The translations under genes and the position numbers were made by a program. Shown one piece after another: positions 12,554 through 50,083 of a stretch of 64,000 bases of DNA; position 1 is the first letter of the stretch, and each line of letters begins with the position of its first letter. The notes below the pieces were generated by a model. It made no database searches and was not told the DNA's origin. It was given only the letters and a program-made list of their open reading frames with translations. The stretch covers positions 256,001-320,000 of the IMG/VR virus record IMGVR_UViG_3300037313_001869; one strand, written 5' to 3'. The DNA comes from a virus. Taxonomy: Duplodnaviria > Caudoviricetes.

Positions 12554-12802
12554 ATGGGACGACTCAGGAAACTAATCCGCGAACGCCTCGGCCAGGCGAC
12601 CAGCAATCGCGAGACCTTGGTGACGTGTGAGTCGTGCCAGGGTTCGGGTATGGTCGTGGTCGAGACCCCCGCCGGCTACCGAGGGACGCAATGCGTCTGG
12701 TGCCACGGCGGGGGCTTCGCCCTTCGTGAGGTCAACTACGCCTATGCCCGCTGGCGTCGGATCAAGCTCCGGAACCAGCGGGCAGGAGCGTGTGGCAGCT
12801 TA
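12554..12802 (+). CDS. DnaJ-type zinc-finger small protein; ends at TTA
   Basis: CESCQGSG and CVWCHGGG; TTA 12800-12802 is the complement of the HNH TAA. Confidence 0.65.
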
Positions 12803-13384
12803 CGAGTTCTGCGCCTCCCCCTCCCCGGGGGAGCTGCCGAGCAGGTAGACGCCGCCACCGGCCTTCTGCGAGGCGTCGATGTTGAGGTACGGCACCCAGA
12901 CGGGCGGCACCGAGCGCGTCTCCAGGAAGACCGCGTGCAGGGGCAGGACGTGGGGTTTCGCCGGCCTCCGGAGCAGGCTCATCTTCGCCTGCTCGGGCGT
13001 CCTTCCGCCCTTCTTGTCGTTGCACGGGTAGCAGCAGGTCACGATGTTCTCCCACACCGTCCTTCCGCCCTGCCGGCGGGGGATGACGTGGTCGTAGTTC
13101 AGCTCCCGCATCGTCTTCTTCGCGCCGCAGTATTGGCACCGGAAGCCGTCCCGGGTGAAGACGTTGATGCGCGAGAACTTGACGCCCTTCTTGTGCCCCA
13201 CGACCGGCTTCTTCAGCAGGATGACGGCCGGCACGTAGAGCGTGACCGAGGGCGACGACACGGTCTCCTCGTACTCTTCGAGCACCGTCACCTTGTTCTC
13301 GTACACGAGGCGGATCGAGTCCTGCCACGGCACGATGGCGTGTGGTTGGTACATGTGGTTCAGAAGCAGCGTCCGGGTCTCCAT
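12800..13384 (-). CDS. HNH endonuclease (McrA-like)
   Basis: RDGFRCQYCG, DHVIPR, WENIVTCCYPCN. Confidence 0.9.
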   Translation of the reverse strand: METRTLLLNHMYQPHAIVPWQDSIRLVYENKVTVLEEYEETVSSPSVTLYVPAVILLKKPVVGHKKGVKFSRINVFTRDGFRCQYCGAKKTMRELNYDHVIPRRQGGRTVWENIVTCCYPCNDKKGGRTPEQAKMSLLRRPAKPHVLPLHAVFLETRSVPPVWVPYLNIDASQKAGGGVYLLGSSPGEGEAQNS

Positions 13385-13549
13385 CGCGTCCTACCTTCGT
13401 CTCCGCTTACGCATAGGGGGTGGGTTCTTTCAGGGGGCCCGCCTGGGGGGCCGGGGGAGGTGTAGAGGTCTCTCCGAGAACCAAGACACCTCTCACCAGA
13501 GGTGCCGGCCTTAGAAGGTTCTTCAACCCTCGCCGAGAGGAGACGATCG

Positions 13550-13867
13550 ATGCCGAACCCGTCTGACAGGGCCATCGCCCAGTACCCCCACTGCGATCAG
13601 CGCGTCCTCCATGCCCCCGGAGAGTGCCGCTACTGCGACGAGCACCCAGACTGGCAAGAGCTGCGAAGGACCTGGAACATCAACTTCACGGGCAAGAAGG
13701 AGCCGGGCAAGAGCCCCTGCCCCGCCGAAGCGAGCCGGACAGCTCGGACCATCCACGAGTGGCACGGCAACCGGCCGACTGAGGTGGAGGTGGACCTCAC
13801 CGAACCGGACAGGTACGTCCGCATCCTCGACGCCGAGACCGAGGGCACCGAGAACGGGGGCCGCTGA
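13550..13867 (+). CDS. hypothetical Cys/His-rich protein
   Basis: AGGAG SD; PHCDQRVLHAPGECRYC. Confidence 0.65.
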   Translation: MPNPSDRAIAQYPHCDQRVLHAPGECRYCDEHPDWQELRRTWNINFTGKKEPGKSPCPAEASRTARTIHEWHGNRPTEVEVDLTEPDRYVRILDAETEGTENGGR

Positions 13868-13912
13868 AACGAGAAGAGGGGCCGGCCCAGGAAAGGCCGA
13901 CCCCTCTTTGTG

Positions 13913-14439
13913 GGTGGAGATGCGCGGAATCGAACCGCGGTCCGTGAGGTGAGAAATCGAGCCTGCTACGTGCGTAGTCTCTCGCGGGCCCGAAGGCCCC
14001 ATCCAGAAGAGACAGTCCGGCCCGGCACCAGATTTTGCGCCGGGCTAACTCTATCTCAGACGCGAGACAGCAAGCGACTGACCGTCAAAGAATCGGGCCC
14101 TGCGCCGCCGGAGCCTGGCTCCCGCGTCCTATCCGTAACGCCAGCCGAGACGTGCCACCAAGGTCGCCCCTGGGTTCGTGCCGACTAGCCCTTTTACAAT
14201 GTGTCTCGTTCCCGAGGCCCCACGGCGAACCCCAGGCTACCAGCCCTTGTCGTTTGGTCGTCCCCATCCCGGCTACCAGGGCGATCTCACCCAGGACGAG
14301 TATCCTCTAAGGCCGCGAGGGCCGGCGAGGCGGCGAAGTTGTCGTTCGCAGGTGTGGTTGCCCCGTTGTTCAAGGCGGGCTGGGCGCCGCCTGCACGCAA
14401 ACTCGATCGATCACCCCCCGTCGAAACCATTTCATCCCC
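13913..14439 (-). ncRNA. ssrA: tmRNA, enlarged (~527 nt), tag ANDNFAASPALAA-TTA
   Basis: 5' GGGGATGAAATGGTTTCGAC; 3' GGTTCGATTCCGCGCATCTCCA with G3.U70; tag reading frame 14349-14311. Confidence 0.93.
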
Positions 14440-14493
14440 GGGGGTCTTCTCTCAAATACACCAGACCGAAGGGAGGCGCAAGAGGCGCCGACC

Positions 14494-14578
14494 GGTGCGG
14501 GAAGGGGGACTCGAACCCCCATGCCCAAGGGCCGCCAGGTTTGAGCTGGCGCTGTCTGCCGGTTCCAAGCATTCCCGC
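14494..14578 (-). tRNA. tRNA-Leu(CAA)
   Basis: loop CTCAAAC, long variable arm. Confidence 0.88.
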
Positions 14579-14618
14579 GAAACAACTATTTGTGCAAGGG
14601 ACTCTAGCGGAGATCCCC

Positions 14619-15320
14619 ATGCGCTACAACTACGATCGCCGCGCCAACGAGAACGAGCCCCAGTCCGTCGAGGCGACCGTCGAGGTCGAAGCGGCCGGCA
14701 AGAAGAAGCACCCGCACATCGTGGTCATGAACCGCGCCCTCGTGAAGCTCAAGCCGAAGTACGAGCAGTACCTCGCCAAGCTCTTCGGCGAGTCGTGGCA
14801 TGTCTCTGCCTACGAAGAGAGGATGATGGACTCGATCACCATCTCGGCCAGCTCCCCGATCAAGGCTGGGGGGTCGTGGGCGCTGGAGATTCGAGTGTCC
14901 CCCGAGGCGACCTGGAACCTCAAGGAGGACTCCAAACCCTTCTTCAGCGGGTGGGTGACCTTCACCGACCCGACCAAGCACCAGAGGGCCGAACGCCGCC
15001 TGAATGACACGCTCCCGGAGCAGTTCACCCCCGAGAACATCCTCGGCCCCATCGCCGACCGGATGAAGGCGGCCTACGGCGGCAGCGTCGACAAGGAGAC
15101 CGACGAGGTCAAGGAGTCGATCGAGAAGTGCCGCGAGAGCCTCGTCGAGGTGAGCTTCGCCCTCGACCAAGCCGAAAAGGCCATGGCCAAGGGCGACCTC
15201 AAGGCTGTCCTCGACGACCTGTCGAAGACCCTGCGGACGGTCAGCCGCTCCGCCTCGGATATCGAGAGCGAAGCGCTGCACACGGCCCAGATGCTCGAAA
15301 AGCTCCAGCAGCTCAAGTTA
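14619..15320 (+). CDS. hypothetical protein; ends at TTA
   Basis: MRYNYDRRA...LEKLQQLK then TTA opposite a convergent TAA. Confidence 0.7.
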
Positions 15321-16169
15321 GGACTGGTTCGCCACCTTGAGGAAGGTGGCGAGGTCCGCTTCCAGCATGAGCTTTTGAGCGAGCATCGTATCGGCGTCGG
15401 GCACCTCGTAGTTCCTGGGGTAGATGCAGTAGGACCGCAGGACCTTGCCCGACGCCGGATCGATCTTCTTGACGTTGTTCGACCGGCCCCGGTTGATGCG
15501 GTAGAGGTTGCCGTCCTGGCCGGCGACATCGAAGTAGTTGTGCGCCGTCAGGTCGGCGTTCTGCTTCGCCGAGAGGGTACCGCGAAGGAGCTTCTCGGCT
15601 CTCCCCCGAGCCTCGGCCCGCTCGGCCTCGTAGACCTTCCGCCGCTCCTCGGCTTCAGCCTCCCGGCGAGCGTACGCGGCCCGCTCTTCGTCGGTCATGA
15701 CCCGATGGGAAAGGCGAGCGATGCCCCGAAGGTTGAGAACGGGGGTGCCGATCTCGTCGGCCCACGGGAACCCGCCATCCCCTACGTCCACCATCCCGAG
15801 GAGGTCCATCTCGGTGACCCCCGCGACCTGGGCAGTCGAGAAGATGAGCGCCCGGTTGCCCTGGGGCACGTAGACATGGGTACCCGTCGTGATGGTCGTG
15901 CTCAGCGTGGTACTGAGCACCGTGGTCGCCTCGGCGGGAATGGCTCGAACGACCATCGGCCCGACGGGGAGCACGGCGGGAACAGCCGTCGTCGCCGAGG
16001 TGGCCGTCACCGTGTAGCCCGAGAGGACGTAGGTGGGCATGTCAGAGATGCCCACGGTGACTGTGCCCGCCGTGGTTGCACTTACCATGGTTGCGCTCGC
16101 CGTGAAGGTCAGGACGTTCGTGGACAGCGTCGCCGCGACCGTGTTGGTCTCAAGGTCGAGCATGACCAT
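15318..16169 (-). CDS. hypothetical protein, partner of the upstream GG-ending protein
   Basis: ATG directly after TTA; Thr-rich N-terminus, C-terminal RSYCIYP...DTMLAQKLML. Confidence 0.7.
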   Translation of the reverse strand: MVMLDLETNTVAATLSTNVLTFTASATMVSATTAGTVTVGISDMPTYVLSGYTVTATSATTAVPAVLPVGPMVVRAIPAEATTVLSTTLSTTITTGTHVYVPQGNRALIFSTAQVAGVTEMDLLGMVDVGDGGFPWADEIGTPVLNLRGIARLSHRVMTDEERAAYARREAEAEERRKVYEAERAEARGRAEKLLRGTLSAKQNADLTAHNYFDVAGQDGNLYRINRGRSNNVKKIDPASGKVLRSYCIYPRNYEVPDADTMLAQKLMLEADLATFLKVANQS

Positions 16170-16436
16170 TAAACCCCCCTGCATCGGGGGAACGAAGATG
16201 ACCTGCTGCGCCCTCGGGTCGAACTCGGCCATCATCTCCCCCCGGGCGCCGTCCTCGCCCTCGACCCGGAAGGCGACGTACTTCTGGCTGCGGAAGTAGT
16301 CGAAGCTCCGGCGAGCGTTCTCGACCTCGGCCTCGCTGTCCACGTCCCAGGTGATCTTCGTGTCGCCCTCACGGCCCATGACGGCCATCTCGTGGCGGCG
16401 CGGCGTGGTGGCGGAAACGGCAGCGTTCATGCTCAT
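16170..16436 (-). CDS. small protein ending in C-terminal Gly-Gly; ends at TTA
   Basis: GDTKITWD...VIFVPPMQGG-TTA-ATG. Confidence 0.75.
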
Positions 16437-16697
16437 CGGCATCTCCATTTCGATCTGAGAAACTGCGGGTGTTCCGTCCATACACCGCAGCGCGCCAGGT
16501 TGCCAGGCTCTAGGAGCCGACAGAGCCCCGGTTCCTTTTATGAGCGCCGATGAAGGAGAGCGTACCGGGATGGAAACACCCCGGACGGGCGAGGTTTCTT
16601 TACCTAACGCCGACCTTCCCCCCAGGAAGTCCCTCACAAATCGTAACGGATCGGATTTCGAGATCCCCGGTGGGGCGGCCTTTTCCTGGAGTTTCCC

Positions 16698-17975
16698 ATG
16701 TTTACGTGGACCGAATCTCGCCTCCGGCGAGCCCAGAAGATCCTCGGCCAGTACGCCGTGAGCGAGTTCCGGAGCGCGCTCGCGAAGATGAGCAGGGCGT
16801 TCGATCACGAAGTGAGCCAGAGTGCCCTGCACTCGGCCTTTGCCCGAAACGAACTCGGCGCTCCGACGAGCTACTGCAAGGCCGACGAGGAGCTGCCCAC
16901 GCCGGCCAAAGCGGCGAAGCCTGCCAAGGCGTTCATCTCCGCCAAGGCCGAGCCGATGAACGAGCCGATGCAGAAGCTCATCGAGGCGACCAAGAAAAAG
17001 GCGCCCGTGTCGGTCGGCGACCTCTGCGACAAGCTCGACATGGCCCCCTCGAAGCTCCGGGCCCTCATCGTCTCGGCCCGGGCGCAGGGCATCGAGATCC
17101 ACGTCGAGCACGATCACGTCGGGCTCCAGATGGACAAGCCCAGCTCCCGCGTACAGAAGGTCGGCGTCGCGCCGGTCATTGGCGAGCGGCAGAAGGTCGC
17201 TGTCATCAGCGACACCCACCTTGGCAGCAAATACTGCCTCAGGGCGCAGCTCCGAGAGTTCATCCACTACGCCTACAGCCAGGGCGTGCGCGAGATCCTT
17301 CACCCCGGAGACGTGCTCGACGGCATGTACCGCCACGGCATGTTCGAGGTCTCCCACGTCAGCGTAGACGACCAAGCCCAAGACCTCTTCGACACCCTGC
17401 CCCAGCTCCCCGGCCTCACCTACCACGGGATCACCGGCAACCACGACTTCACGTTCACCGAGCACAGCGGCCTTCAGATCGGCCCCTACCTCACCAACTA
17501 CTTCCGCGAGAGGGGCCGGAACGATCTCCACTTCTACGGCAACCGATCGGCCTTTCTGAAGGTCCGCGGCGCCGTCGTGCATCTCTGGCACCCGAAGAAG
17601 AACACGGGTTTCGCCAAGTCGTACGCGATGCAGAAAAACATCGAGAAGTACAGCTCGGGAGAGAAGCCGAACATCCTCCTCGTCGGCCACTGGCACATCT
17701 TCTGCCAGGTCGAAGAGCGAGCCGTTCACGGCATCGCCTGCCCCACCTTCCAGGGCGGCGGATCGGCGTTCTCGAAGTCGCTCGGCGGAGCGCCGGCCAT
17801 CGGAGGGCTCATCCTCTCGTGGGACCTCACCCGCGACGGAACGATGAGGAGCTTCGCGGTCGAGAAGCGCAGCTACTTCGAGGAGGAGCGCCCGTACGTC
17901 GTCGGCGACGAGCCCCGCGAGGAGATCCGCATCCCCCAGCGTCAAGAGCCCAAGAAGCGCATCAACCGCCGCTGA
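16698..17975 (+). CDS. HTH plus calcineurin-like metallophosphoesterase
   Basis: DTHLG, GDVLDG, GNHD, GHWH. Confidence 0.85.
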   Translation: MFTWTESRLRRAQKILGQYAVSEFRSALAKMSRAFDHEVSQSALHSAFARNELGAPTSYCKADEELPTPAKAAKPAKAFISAKAEPMNEPMQKLIEATKKKAPVSVGDLCDKLDMAPSKLRALIVSARAQGIEIHVEHDHVGLQMDKPSSRVQKVGVAPVIGERQKVAVISDTHLGSKYCLRAQLREFIHYAYSQGVREILHPGDVLDGMYRHGMFEVSHVSVDDQAQDLFDTLPQLPGLTYHGITGNHDFTFTEHSGLQIGPYLTNYFRERGRNDLHFYGNRSAFLKVRGAVVHLWHPKKNTGFAKSYAMQKNIEKYSSGEKPNILLVGHWHIFCQVEERAVHGIACPTFQGGGSAFSKSLGGAPAIGGLILSWDLTRDGTMRSFAVEKRSYFEEERPYVVGDEPREEIRIPQRQEPKKRINRR

Positions 17976-17997
17976 GCCGGTGAGAGGACCACGACCC

Positions 17998-18615
17998 ATG
18001 ATCGAGAGCATCACGATCGATCCCCAGATCAAGGTCCGCGACCCGAGTGAGCTTCTGATGCTCCCGAGGGTCTTGCGCGTCCGGAGCTTCAACGAAGAGG
18101 CTTGCAAAGCGTTCGCCAAGGAGATGAGCCTCGCTCACCAGACCGGGCAGAACATCATCCCCGTGGTCATCGACTCCTACGGCGGCACCGTCTACTCGCT
18201 CCTCTCGATGATCGACACGATCGAGGCGGCCAAGCTGCCAGTGGCTACGATCGCCGAGGGCAAGGCCATGAGCTGCGGGGCGGTCCTTCTCACCTGCGGA
18301 ACCCCGGGCTACCGGTACATCGGCCCCAACGCCACGCTCATGATCCATGACGTGACCGGAGGCAGCAGCCGGACCAAGAGCGAAGAGCTGAAGATGAGCG
18401 CCCGGGAGATCGGGCGGCTCAACAAAAAGCTCTGGCGCATCCTGGAGAAGAACACGGGCAAGGAGAAGGGCGCTCTGTGGAACATGAGCCAGGATCGGGC
18501 GCGGACCGACTGGTACATCCTGCCTAAGCAGGCTGTCTCGCACGGGTTCGCAGACTACGTCGGCGTACCCACGTTCGAGACCACCGTGTCGGTCAAGACA
18601 ACGCTGACACTGTAG
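17998..18615 (+). CDS. clpP: ClpP-family protease
   Basis: SYGG, GKAMSCG, LMIHD. Confidence 0.85.
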   Translation: MIESITIDPQIKVRDPSELLMLPRVLRVRSFNEEACKAFAKEMSLAHQTGQNIIPVVIDSYGGTVYSLLSMIDTIEAAKLPVATIAEGKAMSCGAVLLTCGTPGYRYIGPNATLMIHDVTGGSSRTKSEELKMSAREIGRLNKKLWRILEKNTGKEKGALWNMSQDRARTDWYILPKQAVSHGFADYVGVPTFETTVSVKTTLTL

Positions 18616-18689
18616 GTGCGGGACCAGGGGATCGAACCCTGCTAAACCAGCGTGTCACACTGGTGCTCTCACCAGAGAGCGAGTCCCGC
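18615..18689 (-). tRNA. tRNA-Val(GAC)
   Basis: loop GTGACAC, GTTCGATCC. Confidence 0.85.
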
Positions 18690-18736
18690 GAAAGAAGGCC
18701 CGGCTCCCCAGATAAGGGGGCCGGGCCTTCGGCCGT

Positions 18737-19105
18737 TCAGCTAGCCTGCCTCTTCAGGCGGACCTCGCTCGAACGGGGGATGGGGATGACGTTCTCCCCT
18801 TCGTCTTCGTCGCTGTTGCTCTCGGCGAAGGGGTCACGCCCGAGCGCCGCCTCGATCTTCGCATCCTCCTCGGCCATCTCGGACCGCAGGACCTCGCGCC
18901 AGTTCGGCCCGTAGGTGCAGGCCATCAGCTCAGGGTCGATGGGGTCCGGCTTGCGCGTCTCGTAAGGGACCTGCTTGCGTGCGGTCGGGGCAGACGACCG
19001 GGAGAGCAGGTCTTGGCAGGCATCGGCGAGCGTCTTCTTCTTCGGCTTGAGCGGCTCGCGAGGCGGGGGTTGTTTCTTACTGGCCCGAGAGGAGCGAAAA
19101 GACAT
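18737..19105 (-). CDS. hypothetical protein
   Basis: 122-aa ORF followed by a hairpin. Confidence 0.55.
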   Translation of the reverse strand: MSFRSSRASKKQPPPREPLKPKKKTLADACQDLLSRSSAPTARKQVPYETRKPDPIDPELMACTYGPNWREVLRSEMAEEDAKIEAALGRDPFAESNSDEDEGENVIPIPRSSEVRLKRQAS

Positions 19106-19199
19106 GAAGTCTCCGCGGTTAGGGGTCCACCATAGTCCAAACTAAAAAGGACTAGGTACTCTCGAAGACCACTAGCGAAGTTATCCGGATCTCCCGGGT

Positions 19200-19961
19200 A
19201 TGAGGACTTTGCCCATCACCCGTCCGGCCGACGCACCGGGCGGTCACGAGTTCATGAACCGCCACCTTCACACACCGAGGGCCGAGCGAGAGAAGGCGTT
19301 CACCGCCGAGATCCTCTCGGGAAACGTGCCCCCGCTCCACACCCGGCTCGCGGAGGTGACCTTCAACGAAAGTGGCCACGAGGCCACGCTCTTCGTCTGC
19401 CCCGACTACCTCTCGATCGGCAGCGACACGGACTTCGTCCGGACGCCGCTCGACCCCCACTCGGCCCAGGCCATCGCCGACGCCTTCGACTGCCTTCTGC
19501 CCACGAAGAAGATGGTCGACCTCATCTGGAAGAACGCCACGGTCAAGCTCGCCCCCCAGCCCTGGGGCCCGCCCTACGACTCGTCGATGATGAGCACCGA
19601 GCGCTACATCGCCCACAACGATCGGGTCGAGGCCCAGTGGGACAAGGCCGGCTATGGCATCGGCAACCTCGTCGCCGGGCACAAGAAGGACGTGGTCATC
19701 ACGAACGTGCTCGCGAACAACCCGACCCGCGTGGCCATCTACGGCTGGCACCAGCTCGACGGCAAGGCCATCCAGGGCCCCGGCGTGCAAGCGAAGGCCC
19801 ACGAGGACACCTACGCCGACTACGCCCACGGCATCCGGCTGATCTCGAAGACCATGCTCCTCGACGGGGCCGAGGTCGCCGTGACCGACGTGCTCGCCGA
19901 CAAGGCCCTTTGCTCGCTTCTCAGCGAAGAGGGACCCGTCCTGAAGGCGCGCTACTTCTAG
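19200..19961 (+). CDS. conserved-looking hypothetical enzyme
   Basis: AGHKKDVV, IYGWH, YADYAHGIRL; family not assigned. Confidence 0.7.
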   Translation: MRTLPITRPADAPGGHEFMNRHLHTPRAEREKAFTAEILSGNVPPLHTRLAEVTFNESGHEATLFVCPDYLSIGSDTDFVRTPLDPHSAQAIADAFDCLLPTKKMVDLIWKNATVKLAPQPWGPPYDSSMMSTERYIAHNDRVEAQWDKAGYGIGNLVAGHKKDVVITNVLANNPTRVAIYGWHQLDGKAIQGPGVQAKAHEDTYADYAHGIRLISKTMLLDGAEVAVTDVLADKALCSLLSEEGPVLKARYF

Positions 19962-20034
19962 TACGAGGTGAGAGGATCGAACTCTCCTGCAACGGTTTGT
20001 AGGACCGCGCCCATCACCAGACGGGGGACCTCGC
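19961..20034 (-). tRNA. tRNA-Val(TAC)
   Basis: loop CCTACAA (C33). Confidence 0.8.
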
Positions 20035-20058
20035 GTGAGGGCCCCCGAAGGGGCCCTT

Positions 20059-20508
20059 TCAGATCGTATCCTTGTCGAGCCGGTCGAACCGGCTCGTCGG
20101 GGGCTTCTCCGGCGCCCAATCGGCCGCCGAAGGGCACCAGTCGTTACGGCGCTTACGGGCCGCGTTGAACTTCGTACCGTCATCGAACGGCAGCATGTGA
20201 ACGTCGGAGACTACGTAACCGCGGAGCATCGGCCGGATCTCCTCCCGGGGTTCGACGACGATGACCGTGCCCCCCTTCGGGAGCTTGCGGACCTCGTCAG
20301 CGATCTTCTGCTTGGCCTCGGGGATCGTGGCCTGCGCAAGGGTCAGCTCTTGGACCATCTTGGCCGCGTGGCTCTCGGCTTGCTGAAACCGGAGCAGGTA
20401 CCCCTGCTCGCCGGTCTCATCCGAGACGTAGACCTGGAACGAAGGGGAGGCGAGCCCGAGGGCTTCGAGATCGGCTTTGACGACCGTGAAGTAGACGTAC
20501 TCGGGCAT
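20059..20508 (-). CDS. hypothetical protein with C-terminal SRFDR motif
   Basis: ORF with GGAG SD. Confidence 0.65.
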   Translation of the reverse strand: MPEYVYFTVVKADLEALGLASPSFQVYVSDETGEQGYLLRFQQAESHAAKMVQELTLAQATIPEAKQKIADEVRKLPKGGTVIVVEPREEIRPMLRGYVVSDVHMLPFDDGTKFNAARKRRNDWCPSAADWAPEKPPTSRFDRLDKDTI

Positions 20509-20524
20509 CGGTCTTCTCCCTCAG

Positions 20525-20806
20525 CTACTCTGGCGGAAGAGTCGGCAAGGCGGCAAGGATCTTGTCGGTGATGTCCCCGGCCATGTCCCGCAGCGCGTCC
20601 CACGTCTCGTCCGTCACCGACTCAGGGCGGTCGAGGATGATCCGCTTGCCGAGGTCGATCCGCACGCCCGAGGTGCGGCCCGTGTAGGGGTGTCGGAGCG
20701 TGAGCAGGAGCAAGGGCAAGACGCTGTCTTTTCGGTAGGTAGCCCCCGACAGCTCCCAACCCCCACCTACTTCGCCCGTGAGCGGTACCTTGATCGTATC
20801 GGCCAT
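20525..20806 (-). CDS. hypothetical protein
   Basis: CGGTGTA-N10-ATG upstream. Confidence 0.65.
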   Translation of the reverse strand: MADTIKVPLTGEVGGGWELSGATYRKDSVLPLLLLTLRHPYTGRTSGVRIDLGKRIILDRPESVTDETWDALRDMAGDITDKILAALPTLPPE

Positions 20807-20827
20807 ACCCCGGCTCTACACCGGGAC

Positions 20828-20898
20828 GGTCGCTGTGGAGGGACTCGAACCCTCGCGGCCGGTCTTATGAGGACCGCCTCTCGCCTTGAGTCACAGCG
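20828..20898 (-). tRNA. tRNA-Met/Ile2(CAT)
   Basis: loop CTCATAA, short D arm. Confidence 0.8.
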
Positions 20899-20987
20899 GT
20901 TGGGGGGGCCATCGGGGAGGCGGCCCCATTTCCTCTGTGTCACGGGGGCTCCACGGCGCAAGACGTGAAACTACGGCCCCCGCTCCC

Positions 20988-21060
20988 GGCGCCCCCGCCA
21001 AGAGTCGAACTTGGCGCGCAGCCTTCGGAGGGCTGCTCCGGCATCCGGCCGGACGGGGGC
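20988..21060 (-). tRNA. tRNA-Arg(CCG)
   Basis: loop CTCCGAA. Confidence 0.82.
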
Positions 21061-21218
21061 ATTGAAAAAATCGTTTATGAAACCGTATCGGCTAAGAGCC
21101 ATGCGCCCCCTGAAGGCACGCCTCAAACCCGTTCGCGAGTTCCTGCTTCTCATGCCCATCGTGCTGGCCCTTACGGCCCTCGTGAGCCCCTTTCTCTCCT
21201 GCACGAGGAAGGCATTCG

Positions 21219-21296
21219 GGCACCCCCGGGTGGACTCGAACCACCGCTAGACCCGGTTCCGAAGACCGGCGCTCTATCCGACTGAGCTACGGGGGC
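21219..21296 (-). tRNA. tRNA-Arg(TCG)
   Basis: loop CTTCGGA. Confidence 0.88.
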
Positions 21297-21537
21297 TCGT
21301 GTCTTGTCTGGGCGGTCCAAACCGCCCATGGAACTGGACCGTGCTCCACTCGATCTGGCAGGTGATGCCCGATCGGCTCCGGGTGATGAGCGCCCAGACG
21401 GTCAGGTCGTCGTCGAAAAGCGGTACCCGGTTACCGATGAGCAACTGCCTCTCTTGGAGGAGGTCGAGAAGCTCGGCAGGGGCCGCGATGCTGTCGTTCT
21501 CGTTGCGGGTAGAGAAGTCGACCCGGAAGCTGCGCAT
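21274..21537 (-). CDS. hypothetical protein
   Basis: CGGTGTC-N9-ATG upstream. Confidence 0.5.
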   Translation of the reverse strand: MRSFRVDFSTRNENDSIAAPAELLDLLQERQLLIGNRVPLFDDDLTVWALITRSRSGITCQIEWSTVQFHGRFGPPRQDTSPRSSVG

Positions 21538-21610
21538 GTCTCCCTAGACACCGGTACGGAGCTGGTCCTCTTATCGAGGGGGGGTGGGTACCTGCCGAAA
21601 GGACCGCCCC

Positions 21611-21820
21611 ATGCAGTTCCGGGTGTCGTACCGCCGAGAGGAAGAGGGCTGGCTCGCCAGCATCTACGCCGTGCCCGGCTGCCACGTCGAGGTCGCCTCG
21701 AAGGACGAGGCCCACGCGAGGCTTCGAGAGGTGCTGCGGTTCTTTTTCGACGACGCCGACGAGGCCGTCTTCACCGACGAGCCGACAAGGGCGCCCCCGG
21801 CAGGAGTCGAACCCGCCTGA
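21611..21820 (+). CDS. HicB-like small protein
   Basis: EEEGWLASIYAVPGCH...EAHARLREVL. Confidence 0.65.
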   Translation: MQFRVSYRREEEGWLASIYAVPGCHVEVASKDEAHARLREVLRFFFDDADEAVFTDEPTRAPPAGVEPA

Positions 21821-21865
21821 TGCCGGGTAGAAGCCGGCCGCCTACTCCGATCGAGCCACGGGGGC
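21790..21865 (-). tRNA. tRNA-Arg(TCT)
   Basis: loop CTTCTAC. Confidence 0.87.
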
Positions 21866-21866
21866 G

Positions 21867-22469
21867 TAAGCGGATCTTTCGGACGAGAGCCGGGTAGGAG
21901 ACGCTCATCGTCAGGGTGAGCGAGCCGCCCTGGCCCTTCGCGTCGATCTTGGCCCGGGCCATGGCGTCCGAAGCATCGGACGCCGCGTCCGATTCAGCCC
22001 GAAGCTTGGCCCGGGCGTGGGCGTCATCTTCGTCCGCGAGGTACTCGTCGGCCCGCTCGCGCATCGAATCGAAGTCCATCCGAAGCTCACGAACGATGGC
22101 GCTGTAGAGGGCGCCGTTCGCGAGCAGCCCGCCCGGGTCGGAGACCTGAACCACCTGGTTCTTGCGGAAGGCATCGGCGAGCATGTCGAGCACCTTCGAC
22201 CCGTACGACCGGGGCAACACGAGGGCGCCCGGAGTCGGACGAGAGGGTACCGTGGGCTCGGGAGCGTGCCGAGGCCCGCCGCTCTTGCGCTCGATGTCGT
22301 CGAGCACGGCGAGCTGCTTCGGAGAGAGAGTCCGGCCCCGCTCGGCCTGCTGCAAGATCGACTGAAGGAAGTTGCTCCGCTCATACCCCGGAATAGCCCG
22401 GATGCGATCGGGGACCGAGGTGGCGGCGAGCTTGTAAGCCCGCACGACGCGGGGCACGAGAGGGTCCAT
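21867..22469 (-). CDS. RVAR-motif protein; ends at TTA just before tRNA-Arg
   Basis: MDPLVPRVVRAY; TTA at 21869-21867. Confidence 0.7.
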
Positions 22470-22498
22470 GCCCCAAGCGGGCTCATAAAAAGAACGAG

Positions 22499-22569
22499 AG
22501 CGGGTGAGGGGAATCGAACCCCCTCCTTCGCGTTGGCAACGCGATGCTCGACCTTCGAGCTACACCCGC
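22499..22569 (-). tRNA. tRNA-Gly(GCC)
   Basis: loop TTGCCAA. Confidence 0.9.
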
Positions 22570-22712
22570 ATTGGGGTACTTTTACGCCCGGAGCCCTTCC
22601 GCGGAGGAATCCCCGAACGCTTCGTAGGCGGGCCATAGTACCAAACCCAAGTGCCCTACGGGGAGCGCAGCAACGCATCCGGGGGCGGTCCTACTAGGTC
22701 CCCGAAGGGACC

Positions 22713-38024: not shown

Positions 38025-38027
38025 CTT

Positions 38028-39932: not shown

Positions 39933-39952
39933 GGGCGCCTTCTACACCGATC

Positions 39953-40028
39953 GGTGGCTAGGGCCGGAATCGAACCGGCTACACCCGGATTTTCAATCCA
40001 GTGCTCTACCAGAATGAGCTACCTAGCC
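39953..40028 (-). tRNA. tRNA-Phe(GAA)
   Basis: loop TTGAAAA. Confidence 0.9.
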
Positions 40029-40035
40029 GTAGATT

Positions 40036-40168
40036 CGTAGCGACAAGGGGCGACAAGACCGTTTTTACGCTGGCTACCGTTACCACACCCCGCGTCAGGT
40101 TGCGGGGCCGGGAGTCGAACCCGGGCTTCGTCCTTGAAATGGTGGAGTCCCATCAGGCATTCGCTACG
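40036..40168 (-). ncRNA. Y-RNA-like ncRNA 4 with permuted tRNA-like domain
   Basis: CGTAGCGAATG..GGACTCCAC; CCGGGTTCGACTCCCGG; CCCCGC/GCGGGG looped stem; CTTGTCGCTACG. Confidence 0.75.
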
Positions 40169-40245
40169 GTGGGTCGTCCCGGGATCGAACCGGGTTCTTC
40201 GGCTTTTCAGACCGACGCTAAGATCACCAGACCAGCTCACGACCC
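40168..40245 (-). tRNA. tRNA-Phe(GAA)
   Basis: loop CTGAAAA. Confidence 0.85.
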
Positions 40246-40251
40246 GTTACA

Positions 40252-40408
40252 AGCGTCCAACAAGGGGGGTGCCCAGACACATGACCCCCACGAACCCGGC
40301 TTTCACCCCGGACGAAGGGGACACCCCCACCTGAACCATCGAGCAGGGAGGAAGGTTTGCTCGCCGGTTCAGGTGGGGGCGTGTAGTCCAAACGTGTATT
40401 CGGACGCT
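40252..40408 (-). ncRNA. Y-RNA-like ncRNA 5 (long hairpin cargo)
   Basis: AGCGTCCGAATA..GGACTACAC ... CTTGTTGGACGCT. Confidence 0.7.
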
Positions 40409-40410
40409 CG

Positions 40411-40485
40411 TGGCACGGCAGGGGGGAATCGAACCCTAGACCTTCCGGAGTTTTGGAGGCTCCGTTACACCCTGTGTTCTGCCGT
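40411..40485 (-). tRNA. tRNA-Trp(CCA), atypical D arm
   Basis: loop CTCCAAA, GCCA. Confidence 0.75.
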
Positions 40486-40490
40486 AAAAG

Positions 40491-40754
40491 TTATGACTTC
40501 TGCTTCTCGAACTTGATGCTGGCGTACGTCCCGAGGAAGCCGCCCACGGCGGCTGCCAGAAGGGTCCTCTTGTCGTGCATGACGAGGAGCATGTTCGTGC
40601 CCGCGAGGAGCACGATGCCCGACGAGATGAGCGAGGCCCGTACGGCCTTCTTCTCGGCGGTGGCGATGATGTACGCGGCCCAGGCCGCATCGACCACGAT
40701 TGCCACCGCGAACGCCAGAGCGAACGGCCAAGAAGACTCTACCCAACCAGGCAT
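40491..40754 (-). CDS. small membrane protein
   Basis: three hydrophobic segments, GGFLGTY. Confidence 0.65.
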   Translation of the reverse strand: MPGWVESSWPFALAFAVAIVVDAAWAAYIIATAEKKAVRASLISSGIVLLAGTNMLLVMHDKRTLLAAAVGGFLGTYASIKFEKQKS

Positions 40755-40783
40755 CCCCCAAAGCTACCACGAACCTGAGGTAG

Positions 40784-40866
40784 GGCTCGACAATGAAGGT
40801 GAGAGACCTTGGCCTAGGCGTTACCCCAGGTACCCTAACAGGTGGAGTCCCTCTTGCATTCGAGCC
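40784..40866 (-). ncRNA. Y-RNA-like ncRNA 6 (minimal)
   Basis: GGCTCGAATG..GGACTCCAC ... ATTGTCGAGCC. Confidence 0.7.
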
Positions 40867-40867
40867 A

Positions 40868-40940
40868 GGCGCGGAGGCAGGACTTGAACCTGCAACCTTC
40901 GGGTTATGAGCCCGACAAGCTACCATTGCTCCACTCCGCA
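40868..40940 (-). tRNA. initiator-type tRNA-fMet(CAT)
   Basis: GGG/CCC anticodon stem, loop CTCATAA. Confidence 0.87.
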
Positions 40941-41013
40941 GCGCCTCGTGGGGGTTTCGATCCCCCTTCAGCCCCTTGAAAGGGGGCCATCCTAGCCAGT
41001 AGACGAACGAGGC
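40941..41013 (-). tRNA. tRNA-Glu(TTC)
   Basis: loop CTTTCAA. Confidence 0.85.
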
Positions 41014-41358
41014 TCAGGTCTTCGGCCGGCGCCGCTCGAACTCCCGGATCTTGTGGCAGTTCGAGCAGACCAGCTCGCACTTTTCGATCTCTTCGACCAG
41101 AGCCTCCAAGGACGGGGCCGCGTAGGCGTCACCGACGTTGAAGAGCTTGGTCGAGGGGTCGACGTGGTCGAACTCCAGAACGTACACCGGCCACTGGTAC
41201 TCGCAGTCGGTGCAGAAGGGGTTCTCCCTCTTCAAGGTCTGGACGAACTCCCGGACCGCCTCGACCAGCTCGTCCTTGCGAAAGGGCCGCGTCGAGGCTC
41301 GAAGGAACTTCCGACCTTGGAGGGTGTTACCTCGGCCGGGGCGTCGCTTGCGCTGCAC
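41014..41358 (-). CDS. HNH endonuclease-like protein (start uncertain)
   Basis: CTDC..LEFDHVDP..KCELVCSNCH. Confidence 0.75.
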   Translation of the reverse strand: MQRKRRPGRGNTLQGRKFLRASTRPFRKDELVEAVREFVQTLKRENPFCTDCEYQWPVYVLEFDHVDPSTKLFNVGDAYAAPSLEALVEEIEKCELVCSNCHKIREFERRRPKT

Positions 41359-41381
41359 ACCCAAGCCGGACGATAAGAGAA

Positions 41382-41446
41382 GGAGCGACAAGCCGTTTGC
41401 CTAGAGAGACGTTTGTAGAGGTGTACTCCAGGCTTTCATTCGCTCC
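41382..41446 (-). ncRNA. Y-RNA-like ncRNA 7 (minimal)
   Basis: GGAGCGAATG..GGAGTACAC ... CTTGTCGCTCC. Confidence 0.7.
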
Positions 41447-41447
41447 A

Positions 41448-41523
41448 GCGATCCCAGCGGGATTTGAACCCGCGTTGTCCGCGTGAGAGGCGGGCGTCCT
41501 AGACCGGGCTAGACGATGGGACC
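41448..41523 (-). tRNA. tRNA-Glu(CTC)
   Basis: loop CTCTCAC. Confidence 0.9.
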
Positions 41524-41700
41524 AAGATACCCCGGCGGGCTTTTACCTCCGCCAGGGCGGCACAAGCTCGAAGCGGTCACTTCGAGGGTCCTCCCCGCTA
41601 GGGGCGTGCTTTGGACCTAGGAGCAGGGTTGTAACACCCGCTCACGAAGACGCAAGAAAAAAGCCCGTGGGCGACTCTCAGGGGTCTTCGTCTAGGGAAA

Positions 41701-41767
41701 GGATCGACAAGGGGACGGGCAAGACCGGTACTTTTTCATGGTGTAGTCCTGACCCAACATTCGATCC
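41701..41767 (-). ncRNA. Y-RNA-like ncRNA 8 (minimal)
   Basis: GGATCGAATG..GGACTACAC ... CTTGTCGATCC. Confidence 0.7.
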
Positions 41768-41843
41768 GGTTGCGGGCACGGGGAATCGAACCCCGCTGTC
41801 TCCGGCGTATGAAACCGGCGTAGAAGCCGCTTTACTCGCCCGC
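41768..41843 (-). tRNA. tRNA-Met(CAT)
   Basis: loop TTCATAC. Confidence 0.78.
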
Positions 41844-41844
41844 A

Positions 41845-41914
41845 GCACGTCCAGAAGGAATCGAACCCTCGCCGCCGGAGTTGGAAACCGGTTGGTCACC
41901 TTGACCTTGGACGT
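41845..41914 (-). tRNA. tRNA-Trp(CCA)
   Basis: loop TTCCAAC, short D arm. Confidence 0.78.
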
Positions 41915-41961
41915 AGATGCCCTCCGAGACCCAAGGTACAGAACCAGAAGTCCCGGAAGGA

Positions 41962-42046
41962 GTGGGCCGCCAGGGAATCGAACCCTGCTAGTCCGCGAAG
42001 GACGACACGTTTACAGCGTGTTTGAGCTTCCAAGCTCCCGCGACCC
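41962..42046 (-). tRNA. tRNA-Tyr(GTA)
   Basis: loop CTGTAAA, long variable arm. Confidence 0.85.
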
Positions 42047-42094
42047 GAATGACCCCCTTGCGGGGGTGGAGTTGAATCGGCCCCCTTGGGGACC

Positions 42095-42169
42095 GGAGCT
42101 GGCGATGGGAGTCGAACCCACCTGGTCCTCTTTACGAAAGAGGTGCGCTCCCACGAGTGCTACACCAGC
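42095..42169 (-). tRNA. tRNA-Thr(CGT)
   Basis: loop TTCGTAA. Confidence 0.87.
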
Positions 42170-42223
42170 ATTCACCGGGGCTGCAACCCCGGGCCATCGT
42201 ACCGTTGCAGCAGTACGACAGCA

Positions 42224-42296
42224 GAGCCCCGTCCCGGAATCGAACCGAGTTTTCCGCGTTACAAAGGCGGCGCCTCACCATTTAGGCGTAAGGGGC
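42224..42296 (-). tRNA. tRNA-Thr(TGT)
   Basis: loop TTTGTAA. Confidence 0.83.
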
Positions 42297-42390
42297 AATC
42301 AGCTCCCGTAAGGGAGCGGCCCTGCGCCCGAAGGAGCAGGGGGTGAGAAGTCAGCACCAGTCCCTAACTTCATGAAGGACCGAATGCCTA

Positions 42391-42464
42391 GCTCCGAGGG
42401 AGGGAGTCGAACCCCCGCTGACAGAAGTTAACAGCTTCTCGCTCTACCGCTGAGCTACCCCGGA
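42391..42464 (-). tRNA. tRNA-Asn(GTT)
   Basis: loop CTGTTAA. Confidence 0.9.
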
Positions 42465-42471
42465 ATGACTG

Positions 42472-42642
42472 TAAAGAACACTGACCGGTCGACCACTTGG
42501 GGAGGTCGGGACGGTCGGGGACGTACACGAGCGCCTCGTCGTCGGGCAGCTCCTCGATGAGCACGTCATCGAAGGGCACGCCGAACGCCGTAGCATACTT
42601 CCGCCGCAGCTTCGCGGCTTCGGTTCGGCAGTTGGCGCTCAC
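42472..42642 (-). CDS. small hypothetical protein; ends at TTA just before tRNA-Asn
   Basis: AGGAGG SD plus GTG; TTA at 42474-42472. Confidence 0.55.
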
Positions 42643-42687
42643 CCCCCTCCTAGACACCGGAGGGGGCGGGACTCTGACAGAGATTTT

Positions 42688-42903
42688 TCAGGCGTCGCCA
42701 CGGGCCGCGCCAGGAAAGCGCAGAGCGTGGGAGTGCTTGGCGAACTTCTCGCCGAAGAGGGTCTTGATCATCCAGTAGTCCTCGGCCCTCTCGGCCGCCT
42801 CGCACTCGGGGCAGCCCTTCATATGCTCGACGTGGGCAAGGATCTCCTCGTCCGAAGAGGTGGCAGTCGGGGCGGGGTAGGTGCAGGGAGCGATGGTCTT
42901 CAT
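42688..42903 (-). CDS. small Zn-finger (anti-sigma ZAS-like) protein
   Basis: HVEHMKGCPEC. Confidence 0.5.
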   Translation of the reverse strand: MKTIAPCTYPAPTATSSDEEILAHVEHMKGCPECEAAERAEDYWMIKTLFGEKFAKHSHALRFPGAARGDA

Positions 42904-42964
42904 GCCCCATCAGTCGCAAGAACCCCCGCCGAGATTACACCCCTCGGTCGATTTTTCTCTGCCG

Positions 42965-43041
42965 TGGCTGTGGGGGTAGGAGTCGAACCTACGGAATCGC
43001 GGTTAACAGCCGCGCCGATGTACCGGCACATCAGCCCCACA
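42965..43041 (-). tRNA. tRNA-Asn(GTT)
   Basis: loop CTGTTAA, GCCA. Confidence 0.83.
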
Positions 43042-43269
43042 AAAAGAGAGGCTCGCCCCCGCCTCACGGCGGAGACAAGCGCCCTCCCGGACCCGGTGTT
43101 ACCCAGGCCCTTCTTTCTTGTAAACCATGCAGGGGAGGTGCGTGCTCCTGCCTGTCTCGCCCGCTGGAGCCCCCAGTAGAGTCGGGGTCGATCACCGCAA
43201 CGAGACGTTTCGGCCCTAACCCCCCAAACGGGGAGCGTCGGTGGCCGTGGCAAGCCGTCCTAGCCCTGT

Positions 43270-43286
43270 CAGATTGTCAAAGGTCA
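43270..43286 (-). promoter_or_regulatory. boxA-like antitermination site
   Basis: TGACCTTTGACAATCTG resembles rrn boxA; lies near the 5' end of the tRNA array. Confidence 0.5.
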
Positions 43287-43311
43287 GTCCCCGCGCCCGA
43301 AGGAGGGGGAG

Positions 43312-43387
43312 TGGAACCAGGAGCACGACTCGAACGCGCCTTCCGAGGGTCAGAACCTCGTGTCTTTGCCGGATAGACGATCCTGGT
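43312..43387 (-). tRNA. tRNA-Gln(CTG)
   Basis: loop TTCTGAC, CCA. Confidence 0.82.
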
Positions 43388-43402
43388 AGATGCAAACGCT
43401 GA

Positions 43403-43477
43403 TGGTCGGGGGCACGGGAATCGAACCCGCCTCTCTCAGGTTAAGAGCCTGCTGCGTCACCTTGACGCCAACCCCCA
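43403..43477 (-). tRNA. tRNA-Lys(CTT)
   Basis: loop CTCTTAA, CCA. Confidence 0.83.
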
Positions 43478-43485
43478 ATAGGGTC

Positions 43486-43559
43486 GGTGGGACGCACCAG
43501 AATCGAACTGGCCCCTTGAGGATTAAAAGTCCCCTGCACCACCTTGGTGCTAACGTCCC
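43486..43559 (-). tRNA. tRNA-Lys(TTT)
   Basis: loop CTTTTAA. Confidence 0.87.
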
Positions 43560-47935: not shown

Positions 47936-47957
47936 GGCCCGGGAGGCTAGCACACCC

Positions 47958-49187
47958 TCAGCGGCAGCGGGCCGTCAAGGTCCAGCCGGCGTGCTTGAGC
48001 CGGTGGCTGTAGACCTCTTCGAGGGCGTCCTTCACCTTGTTCTTGAAGACCTTCTGCCAGAAGGGCTGCAAGATCGGCCCCTCGCCCTTCTGCTCACGAT
48101 GCTTTTCGAGCATCGCCAGGAAGGGCAGCTCCTTGTTGTGGAGGATCTCGCCGTCGCTCTTGTTGTCGAGCAGCATATCGAAGTAGAGGGGCAGGTCCTT
48201 GACCATCTGCTTGCGAATGTCGGCGGGGATCTCCCGCTTGCCGCCCGCCTCGTCCGACAGGTCCTCGAAGAACTCGGTCGCCTGCGACAGCTCGATGATG
48301 AGCGACGAAGGCTCGCTCGTCAGGGCATCGAGAAGGGGGTGAAGCAGAGCGAGCACGCCGGTCTTGCGCGACCGAGAGAGGTCGACGGTCTTGCCCGACG
48401 GCACCTTCTTCAGGATCTTCGAGAGGGCCGGGTCCTGGAGCGTGCGGAAGGCAAGCGGGTAGCTCTTGCCGTTCACCTTGATCGAGACCTCCCGAGGGTT
48501 CTTGACCGTCAGCTCGATCTTGGGCGCGTCCGGCCGGCTCGCGTCGACCTGGCTGAGCAGGTCGTCGATCTCGCTCACGCTGAGCGCCTTGCTCAGATTC
48601 TCGCGGACCTCGTCGAGCCGCTCCTCGCTCATCACGTCGTCGAGGTAGCCCCACTGGTTCGGGTCGGCGATGACGCGCTCGACGTTCTTCCCCTCGTCGT
48701 CCGTCTCGGTCATCGACACGTCTCGGTCCTGGCTCCGGAGGATGTCGAGCGCCCGGTTTTGCATCGACCGGAGCGTGTAGCCCTGCGCCTGAGAGAGGTT
48801 CTTGCCCTTCAGGCCCGCGAGAAACGAGGCGTTCTCCTGGGGGTCGAACATCTTGAGGAGCAGCTCCATCACGACCTCTTCGGCGAGGTCGGGGTTCCGG
48901 AACTTGGCGAGCAGGGCCTTGTAGACCTTGTTGCCGAAGTCCCTGGCCTCCGACCCTCCGTAGGTCCGGTAGACCTTCTGGATGTCCCGGACCTCCTTGA
49001 TCGGCTTCGCCGGCTCGGGCATCCCCTCGACCCCCGCGAGGTAGAAGTAGCCGTAGAGCACGCCCCCGAGGTCGTGCTGGATCGACGACAGCTTGACGAG
49101 GAGGTTGGCAAGACGGTAGCCCCACGGGAGCGAGGCGTAGACCTTGCGGCGGAGGTTTTCGGCGGCGGCAGCGAGGCGAAGGGACAT
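47958..49187 (-). CDS. sigma70/ECF region-2-like protein
   Basis: DLAEEVVMELLLK...YTLRSMQNRALDILR. Confidence 0.55.
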   Translation of the reverse strand: MSLRLAAAAENLRRKVYASLPWGYRLANLLVKLSSIQHDLGGVLYGYFYLAGVEGMPEPAKPIKEVRDIQKVYRTYGGSEARDFGNKVYKALLAKFRNPDLAEEVVMELLLKMFDPQENASFLAGLKGKNLSQAQGYTLRSMQNRALDILRSQDRDVSMTETDDEGKNVERVIADPNQWGYLDDVMSEERLDEVRENLSKALSVSEIDDLLSQVDASRPDAPKIELTVKNPREVSIKVNGKSYPLAFRTLQDPALSKILKKVPSGKTVDLSRSRKTGVLALLHPLLDALTSEPSSLIIELSQATEFFEDLSDEAGGKREIPADIRKQMVKDLPLYFDMLLDNKSDGEILHNKELPFLAMLEKHREQKGEGPILQPFWQKVFKNKVKDALEEVYSHRLKHAGWTLTARCR

Positions 49188-49244
49188 GTCAAAATCGTCC
49201 CGCGGATAAGTACAAATTTGCCAGCCCCGGTGTAGCCTTCGAGC

Positions 49245-49775
49245 ATGGCGAACTACGGCTACGTCCACATGAAGAAGAAGCTCAAGCGAGACGAGATGCT
49301 GCCTCTTCTGCGCGAGACGATCGCGAAGATGCTGCCCGGGCCGTGGGAGGTGAAGGAGACCGACTGGGACGACGAAGGCCCGGTGTGGTTCGTCTTTCTG
49401 CCCGGCACGGCCCAAGACCGGGAGGGGGCTCGCAAGATGGCCCTCGCCCCGGGGCAGGACGTAGGCTTCCCGGTCGCCCTCCAGGGCGGAGGCAAGCGGC
49501 TCGCCTTCCGGCACATGATCAACTTCTTCGAGTCCTGGGCCCAGGGCCGGATCGAGGAAGAGCTGGGCGAACAGTTCGGCGTCGGCGTCGAATACGACGC
49601 GACCGACGAGACCTACGCGCCGACCCGGCGCGAATACCGCCGGGGCAAGACCTACTTCGAGTACCTCTCGCGCAATTTCGACAAGCCCCTGTCGAAGGAG
49701 GACGAGGAGTTTCTGAACGGCCGCTTCCGCGAGATGGCCCCGCCCGGCTTCTGGCGTGGCGAGGAGTTCGGCTGA
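49245..49775 (+). CDS. hypothetical protein
   Basis: CGGTGTA-N10-ATG. Confidence 0.75.
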   Translation: MANYGYVHMKKKLKRDEMLPLLRETIAKMLPGPWEVKETDWDDEGPVWFVFLPGTAQDREGARKMALAPGQDVGFPVALQGGGKRLAFRHMINFFESWAQGRIEEELGEQFGVGVEYDATDETYAPTRREYRRGKTYFEYLSRNFDKPLSKEDEEFLNGRFREMAPPGFWRGEEFG

Positions 49776-50083
49776 TGGCCCTGATGACCCCGATCGAAAA
49801 CGTCCTCGGCGATCAGCTCGAAGCCTGGGCTGACCAGTATGTCCGGCTCTTCCGGGACGTTCGCGGCCAGGCGGGCATCGTAGGCATCCACCGGGCGAGG
49901 CTCGGGCCGCAGACGCGCACCTTCACGGGCGAGTTTCGCTACCACGTCTGGGAGAACGAGCGCTGGGCTGTCTACGTCTCCTCGACCCGGGGCGCGTGCT
50001 TCCATGTCCCTGAAGGCACTTCGGCCCAGGACGCCTTGCGTGCCTGGGCCGAGTACGAAAAGAAGCTTCGGAACAAGGGCTAA
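49775..50083 (+). CDS. hypothetical protein
   Basis: TGATG coupling; MALMTPIEN. Confidence 0.65.
   Translation: MALMTPIENVLGDQLEAWADQYVRLFRDVRGQAGIVGIHRARLGPQTRTFTGEFRYHVWENERWAVYVSSTRGACFHVPEGTSAQDALRAWAEYEKKLRNKG

Follow-up and report, generated by a model that had tools for sequence, protein, structure and literature searches.

Computational evidence for UUA as a probable fourth stop codon in a GC-rich jumbo phage

We analysed a 64,000-nucleotide stretch of DNA (the window), which corresponds to bases 256001–320000 of a 435,218-bp virus record of soil origin (IMG/VR IMGVR_UViG_3300037313_001869, here G000), and found computational evidence that UUA is, very probably, read as a fourth stop codon when the genes of this phage are translated. 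The record carries direct terminal repeats and is a complete genome of 65% GC. It is a jumbo phage without a close cultured relative, with a gene content that includes class II ribonucleotide reductase, GroEL, ClpP, a transfer-messenger RNA (tmRNA) and a large tRNA array. About 60% of its genes have no homologue in two complete relatives, G001 and G002, and most have no Pfam match. A Logan assembly (32x word depth) that may come from the source sample matches window positions 10500–30000 (19.5 kb) with zero differences.

Gene ends at TTA across the genome

A gene model with four stops contains 612 genes, which end in TGA (392), TAG (87), TTA (69) or TAA (64). Accepting TTA as a stop raised the gene-model score and increased coverage from 83% to 87%, a far larger gain than was obtained with ATA, CTA or AGA. 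The gene caller then counts TTA as a stop, which makes its zero count of in-frame TTA circular, and we therefore relied on continuation and alignment tests instead. After a coding stretch, coding resumed past 3 of 50 TTA codons, and all three exceptions proved to be adjacent genes. The count was 16 of 297 for standard stops (p 0.74 against TTA) and 23 of 60 for CTA (p 8e-5). Expressed as rates, continuation was 6% for TTA and 5–8% for the standard stops, compared with 21–58% for rare sense codons. CTA and TCA, which the initial annotation had named as controls, were read through in 38% and 44% of cases. TAA, TAG and TGA are thus still stops, TCA and TTG remain sense, and UUA is the only codon affected.

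Alignment to the proteins of relatives gave the same picture. Among ~57,000 aligned codons, TTA occurred at most once, the single case being alignment overshoot at a gene end; TAG was never found in frame and TGA once, also as an overshoot. At 143 positions where relatives stop, the codon in G000 is TGA 45 times, TTA 10 times, TAG nine times and TAA three times, so that TTA is the second commonest, and the other one-step neighbours of stops occur 0–3 times each. In 46 of 50 comparisons the orthologue ends within 10 amino acids (aa) of the TTA. The extensions that translation table 11 would add past TTA score as non-coding, and 46 of the 69 run into other genes. TTATG stop-start overlaps are also present. 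A regulatory UUA of the bldA kind, read as leucine, was not seen, there being no UUA inside a gene with the protein continuing past it.

The core/virion block is rich in TTA stops, which close 17 of its 60 genes (scan p 0.006); in one block of small genes they close only 1 of 90 (p 0.009). TAA stops are not clustered. One TTA-ended gene, at G000 358380–359063 on the minus strand, encodes a ribosomal protein L7/L12 C-terminal domain. The base after a TTA stop is A in only 3 of 69 cases, and the words TTAA, TTAG, AATT and CTAG are rarer than expected throughout the genome (0.35–0.6 of expectation). We also considered ATA as a fifth stop and ruled it out, its 29 occurrences being scattered inside called genes with none at relatives' stop positions. 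ATA has nonetheless been nearly purged (29 in 127,000 codons, 2–3 of them in conserved cores), and still looks like a sense codon.

Convergent genes that share one triplet

TTA is the reverse complement of TAA, so two converging genes may share a single triplet if both codons are stops. The initial annotation had located four such sites in the window, and their positions are correct: plus-strand TTA at 12800, 15318 and 27531, and plus-strand TAA at 50081 (Table 1). At each of them TAA closes one gene and the opposing in-register TTA ends the coding of the other, which supports the proposal that the triplet terminates on both strands; the accompanying statement that the standard code cannot produce this three-base geometry also holds. 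The annotation had further held four exact coincidences to be hard to explain in any other way. The geometry is real, but since every TAA faces a TTA, four cases alone prove little, and the deciding test is where the genes end.

Read with table 11, the TTA-bearing frames of the four sites gain another 142–283 codons, which are antisense shadow of the gene opposite. The alignment column that holds the TTA at 15318 is the end of five homologues of the plus-strand gene; a sixth homologue, P0241, carries TTA there, which the database gene caller read through. At 50081, the G001 and G002 orthologues of the minus-strand gene end 1–4 residues from the TTA, and read-through would add 143 codons. For the plus-strand gene at 27531 no homologue was in hand, and the coding score per codon falls from 0.30 upstream of the TTA to -0.22 downstream. 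The weakest of the four is 12800. A search for sequence homologues of its zinc-finger gene found none, and the gene caller used here also missed it. Table 11 makes this gene 303 aa long, the surplus being an antisense shadow of the HNH gene; Atlas look-alikes of the 82-aa protein are 60–102 aa long, not 303.

Table 1. Features of the window named in the text (positions are those of the window; +, plus strand; -, minus strand)
Feature	Position	Strand	Remarks
tRNA array	10093..43559	-	43 tRNAs called by ARAGORN and at least 3 more
vWA-domain gene	10740..12332	-	ends in TTA, where the G002 orthologue has TGA
DnaJ-type zinc-finger gene, 82 aa	12554..12802	+	ends in TTA; Pfam E 2e-4, below curated cut-off
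Shared triplet	12800..12802	both	TTA ends + zinc-finger gene, TAA ends - HNH gene
HNH endonuclease gene, 194 aa	12800..13384	-	ends in TAA
tmRNA gene, 528 nt	13912..14439	-	Rfam RF00023, 78.8 bits
tmRNA tag frame	14308..14349	-	ANDNFAASPALAA, then TTA (14310-14308)
Gene, 233 aa	14619..15320	+	ends in TTA; the ends of five homologues align with it
Shared triplet TTA/TAA	15318..15320	both
Gene, 283 aa	15318..16169	-	ends in TAA
Gene, 88 aa	16170..16436	-	ends ...MQGG then TTA; ATG of next gene directly after, in frame
tRNAs missed by ARAGORN	19963-20034, 35106-35190, 40414-40486	-	Val(UAC)-, Ser(GCU)- and Trp(CCA)-like loops
Gene, 200 aa	21867..22469	-	ends in TTA, unshared
Gene, 92 aa	27255..27533	+	ends in TTA; coding score only
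Shared triplet TTA/TAA	27531..27533	both
Gene, 89 aa	27531..27800	-	ends in TAA; full-length homologues of same length
Gene, 56 aa	42472..42642	-	ends in TTA, unshared
Gene, 102 aa	49775..50083	+	ends in TAA
Shared triplet TAA/TTA	50081..50083	both
Gene, 328 aa	50081..51067	-	ends in TTA; orthologues end nearby
Gene, 65 aa	55142..55339	-	ends in TTA, unshared

Across the whole genome, one triplet is shared at 14 of 49 convergent junctions (15 if 12800 is counted). Sorted by stop codon, sharing involves 14 of 19 TAA gene ends at these junctions and 0 of 62 TAG or TGA ends (Fisher 6e-12), a contrast that partly follows from the caller accepting TTA as a stop. Against a frame null, 15 of 19 TAA junctions are in register where one third is expected (binomial 6e-5). 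No CTA/TAG or TCA/TGA triplet is shared, just as the annotation had predicted. The standard-code relatives G001 and G002 have no three-base convergent overlap and use four-base overlaps at 3 of 30 and 6 of 37 junctions, respectively. This phage family therefore tends towards interlocked convergent stops, with the new code permitting a tighter three-base form in place of the four-base overlap.

The shared triplet is a consequence of TTA being a stop genome-wide and no separate device; 55 of the 69 TTA stops are unshared. The flanks of the shared sites are not more palindromic than shuffled sequence (p 0.15), giving no sign of a hairpin, and an excess of terminators was sought there and not found. 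As a diagnostic for other recoded genomes, which is how it had been put forward, the shared triplet is weak because it requires convergent genes, and the codon found at homologous C-termini is the stronger test.

The 88-aa gene at 16170..16436 has the 283-aa gene as its in-frame neighbour, and the C-terminal Gly-Gly of its product is exposed only if TTA is a stop. The protein is possibly a ubiquitin-like modifier.

Relatives, tRNA genes and the tmRNA

To follow the trait among relatives we used homologous gene ends. One core gene was compared with 120 homologues, and in 115 of them the end coincides exactly with the TTA position of G000. Four others extend with leucine, and the three whose DNA was retrieved all have TTA there; one of these lies on a 454-kb, 57% GC contig (JAWVHG010000027.1) with four TTA ends in 21 kb. 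Over six related contigs taken together, TTA is absent from 14,061 conserved codons, yet it supplies 8 of the 21 stops found at homologous ends. TTA gene ends occur in four of the six, and the other two show only the absence of internal TTA. Those of the six that could be placed fall together with G000. Support is moderate, with SH-aLRT 87 in a quick tree of one gene and 75/89 for the separating branch in a four-gene tree; neither tree included L330. Major capsid identity was tried as a clade marker and rejected, since it is 90–95% across the whole family. Pattern scans of IMG/VR gave 0 matches, both for a tmRNA tag and for a core gene ending in TTA.

Most of 80 family members avoid TTA or read it as leucine. 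G281, a relative of matched GC content (64%), has TTA in mid-gene and never at homologous ends. TTA is used at 0–0.2 per 1000 codons in G002, G280 and G281, frequencies that would fit codon capture, with TTA almost gone from the genes of GC-rich relatives before its reuse as a stop. A 4-kb IMG/VR contig, L315, is nested among standard-code phages outside the TTA clade and has TTA where a conserved gene ends; reading through it extends the frame by 51 codons. This may be a second origin or a stop loss; a single site does not separate the two.

Searches of the tRNA array and the rest of G000 found neither a tRNA with the anticodon UAA nor any derivative of one. Three standard-code relatives (G001, G002 and G281) encode tRNA-Leu(UAA). 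Genes for tRNA-Leu(UAG) and tRNA-Ile(UAU), present in G002 and G281, were likewise not found in G000. The tmRNA tag closes with ...ALAA followed by TTA, where the tags of G002, G281 and a Polyangiaceae genome end in AA and a standard stop.

Several other features of these RNAs stood out. At 528 nt, the tmRNA is ~170 nt longer than those of relatives (~350 nt). At G000 331929–332021 (minus strand) there is a CUA-anticodon tRNA whose variable arm is long, although TAG is a stop, with a Pth2-like gene ~370 bases away; G002 carries two CUA tRNAs. A degenerate Leu-type tRNA lies at ~37296–37372 of the window, and between two tRNA-Phe genes there is a weak Y RNA-like (YrlA) match (40034–40167, minus strand; 23 bits, below the gathering score).

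Possible mechanisms and known reassignments

We searched G000 for a release factor of its own. The Pfam RF-1 and PCRF profiles had no match in G000, an RF2 profile from 115 sequences had none in its six frames, and scans for GGQ in a release-factor context and for baeRF-type motifs found nothing. A Pfam screen turned up no release factor; it covered 281 G000-specific genes, apart from ~90 that are short or span tiles, and only a minority of the shared ones. Nor was there one among the matches listed in an NCBIfam screen of genes absent from G001 and G002. Because the phage has no recognisable class I release factor, we suspect that it is a host factor of this class that frees the peptide at UUA, and consider this step probable. 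The likeliest such factor would be an RF2 whose H/Q-T-S-F motif carries Ala or Gly instead of Ser.

In organelles, termination at UUA has been linked to replacement of RF2 Ser204 by Ala, Gly or Cys, and the report of this link describes the serine as invariant (PMC12574857). A GTDB scan nevertheless returned at least 120 true RF2 genes with Ala or Gly at the Ser of H/Q-T-S-F, and the taxa among the matches listed include Myxococcota, Acidimicrobiia, Thermoleophilia, Planctomycetota and others. Such an RF2 is carried by 47 of 68 genomes in a candidate host order, the one to which a Polyangiaceae metagenome-assembled genome belongs. The tRNA-Leu(UAA) arm is kept in 46 of 48 Myxococcota-type genomes with Ala/Gly RF2, and bacteria with this RF2 read TTA as leucine wherever this is testable. 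The substitution is therefore not sufficient alone; it may be permissive for release at UUA. In a set of 251 genomes, 91 seemed to lack tRNA-Leu(UAA), which is at least partly the product of a too-strict search pattern. No TTA-stop signal was found in 27 sampled Myxococcota-type genomes (2–140 kb each, hence low power), and at 80 scored RF2 loci coding continues past 9 of 12 TTA. Weak signs point to Myxococcota as a possible host group; GroEL was uninformative.

In the sequence of events that we favour, UUA very probably acts as a fourth stop during translation of G000 genes, and the host would have the standard code, with UUA unmasked during infection. The phage would have lost its own tRNA-Leu(UAA), and the rare tRNA-Leu(UAA) of the host would be inactivated or outcompeted by some phage function, whereupon host RF2 would free the peptide at UUA. 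We see this chain as a whole as evenly poised between right and wrong. A GNAT acetyltransferase gene at 55696–56103 (plus strand) is absent from G001, G002 and the examined part of G281; as a lead, we name it as a candidate for tRNA inactivation. An infection-timed route agrees with the concentration of TTA stops in the core block, which is comparable to the late-gene bias of stop-to-sense phages.

Several points count against this account. Clustering could be explained by gene age as well. Some small early-type genes end in TTA and no gene contains a sense TTA, which a permanently recoded host would fit equally. No anticodon nuclease was found among the 281 G000-specific genes screened by Pfam. 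CTA is used as sense 137 times in a genome without tRNA-Leu(UAG), so a missing tRNA gene alone proves little. The residue called Ser204 is presumably the Ser of the H/Q-T-S-F motif, an equation that we based on RF2 numbering. Lastly, the pointer to a Myxococcota host consists of HU matches of ~40% identity and the ANDN...ALAA tag.

The closest alternative is a host in which TTA is itself a stop, that is, unsampled GC-rich bacteria that have lost tRNA-Leu(UAA) and have a permissive RF2, with the phage clade following the host code. Since no gene has a sense TTA, whereas the equally rare ATA sits inside genes 29 times, it stays a serious rival, and it is also favoured by the empty release-factor searches, the TTA at the end of the tmRNA tag, the near absence of TTA in some Myxococcota of 71–72% GC, and the TTA at the same gene end in L315, outside the clade. 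We nevertheless think it rather unlikely, given the negative (if low-powered) Myxococcota-type sample and RF2 loci, the retention of tRNA-Leu(UAA) in nearly all Ala/Gly genomes, and the uneven distribution of TTA stops along the phage genome. Less likely still is a release factor or adaptor, encoded by the phage and unknown in fold, that would read UUA itself or direct host RF1 or RF2 to it: the trait tracks a phage clade and the many genes without homologue or Pfam match leave room for such a protein, but neither a GGQ in release-factor context nor an RF-like profile match was found, and we judge the idea improbable.

Two further readings were considered. UUA could be an empty codon at which ribosomes stall and are rescued (by ArfB/ArfA-type release, drop-off with Pth, or mRNA cleavage), shift by +1, or bypass; bypassing at UUA has reportedly been proposed for a Streptomyces phage (PMC10732093). 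In its favour, no cognate tRNA gene was found, and the phage has a tmRNA and a Pth2-like gene. If the tag of the tmRNA itself ended in a stall, however, this RNA would presumably defeat its own purpose, and TTATG stop-start overlaps exist and the abundant core genes use TTA most. C or T follows 37 of the 69 TTA codons, which leaves no +1 shift onto a stop and leads us to reject that route; A and G are not enriched there (p 0.24). We therefore give the empty codon very little credence. Least credible of all is that TTA still means leucine and that its apparent stops come from the loss of stops by mutation, from errors of assembly or from the antisense shadows that GC-rich DNA produces. At 65% GC, long antisense frames in register are indeed common, and TTA is one substitution from both TAA and TGA. 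Other one-step neighbours fail to accumulate where relatives stop, on which ground we reject stop loss. The extensions score as non-coding and mostly enter other genes, the GC-matched G281 shows no TTA at homologous ends, the second assembly is identical, and related contigs from other samples show the same pattern. On balance, we consider it likely that either the phage clade imposes a sense-to-stop change on a standard-code host, by disabling tRNA-Leu(UAA) and so unmasking a capacity to terminate at UUA that is latent in the Ala/Gly RF2 of many GC-rich bacteria, or an undescribed bacterial lineage has a four-stop code.

Rare UUA in GC-rich DNA is also a feature of the Streptomyces bldA system, in which UUA inside genes is leucine and its reading depends on one tRNA. 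In G000, by contrast, UUA is never intragenic and sits at conserved C-termini. The stop set of G000 equals that of NCBI table 23, the code of Thraustochytrium mitochondria, in which UUA is a stop. As in the mitochondria of Labyrinthulea (PMC12574857), the same codon has gone from leucine to stop and the three standard stops are kept; unlike them, G000 is a large GC-rich phage of ~600 genes served by bacterial ribosomes, with no recognisable release factor gene. The same report gives UUA and UCA as stops in peDinoflagellate plastids, with the RF2 Ser204 change as the proposed cause, and UUR as stops in the mitochondria of Marsupiomonadales and Pseudoscourfieldia; it regards the plastids as the first instance of a sense-to-stop reassignment beyond mitochondria. 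In these organelles, as in G000, the codon is found only at 3' ends defined by homologues, and Marsupiomonadales mitogenomes also lack the cognate tRNA gene. In G000 UUA alone is affected. In its sequence features, with UUA missing from the interior of conserved genes and placed where homologues stop, and with the three standard stops retained, G000 agrees with the organellar UUA reassignments.

Phages recoded at TAG or TGA (codes 15 and 4; bioRxiv 10.1101/2021.08.26.457843; PMC13037316) have undergone the opposite, stop-to-sense change, and unlike them G000 has no in-frame TAG or TGA in conserved genes, no recognisable phage RF1 or RF2 and no explanatory suppressor tRNA. The phage and jumbo-phage papers that we examined consider stop-to-sense changes only, and in the open-access literature we found no phage or bacterial sense-to-stop case; such changes have been reported from mitochondria and, since 2025, from one plastid lineage (PMC12574857). 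Under table 11, ~11% of G000 proteins acquire false tails, as P0121, P0126 and P0241 illustrate. TTA-stop genomes are missed by coding-density screens that use codes 15, 90 and 91. That Ala/Gly RF2 is common alongside sense TTA points to competition between release factor and tRNA. Either route, unmasking by the phage or a four-stop host, would if true be the first sense-to-stop reassignment on bacterial ribosomes, as far as we have found, and such a case would make the organellar RF2 Ser204 hypothesis testable in bacteria.

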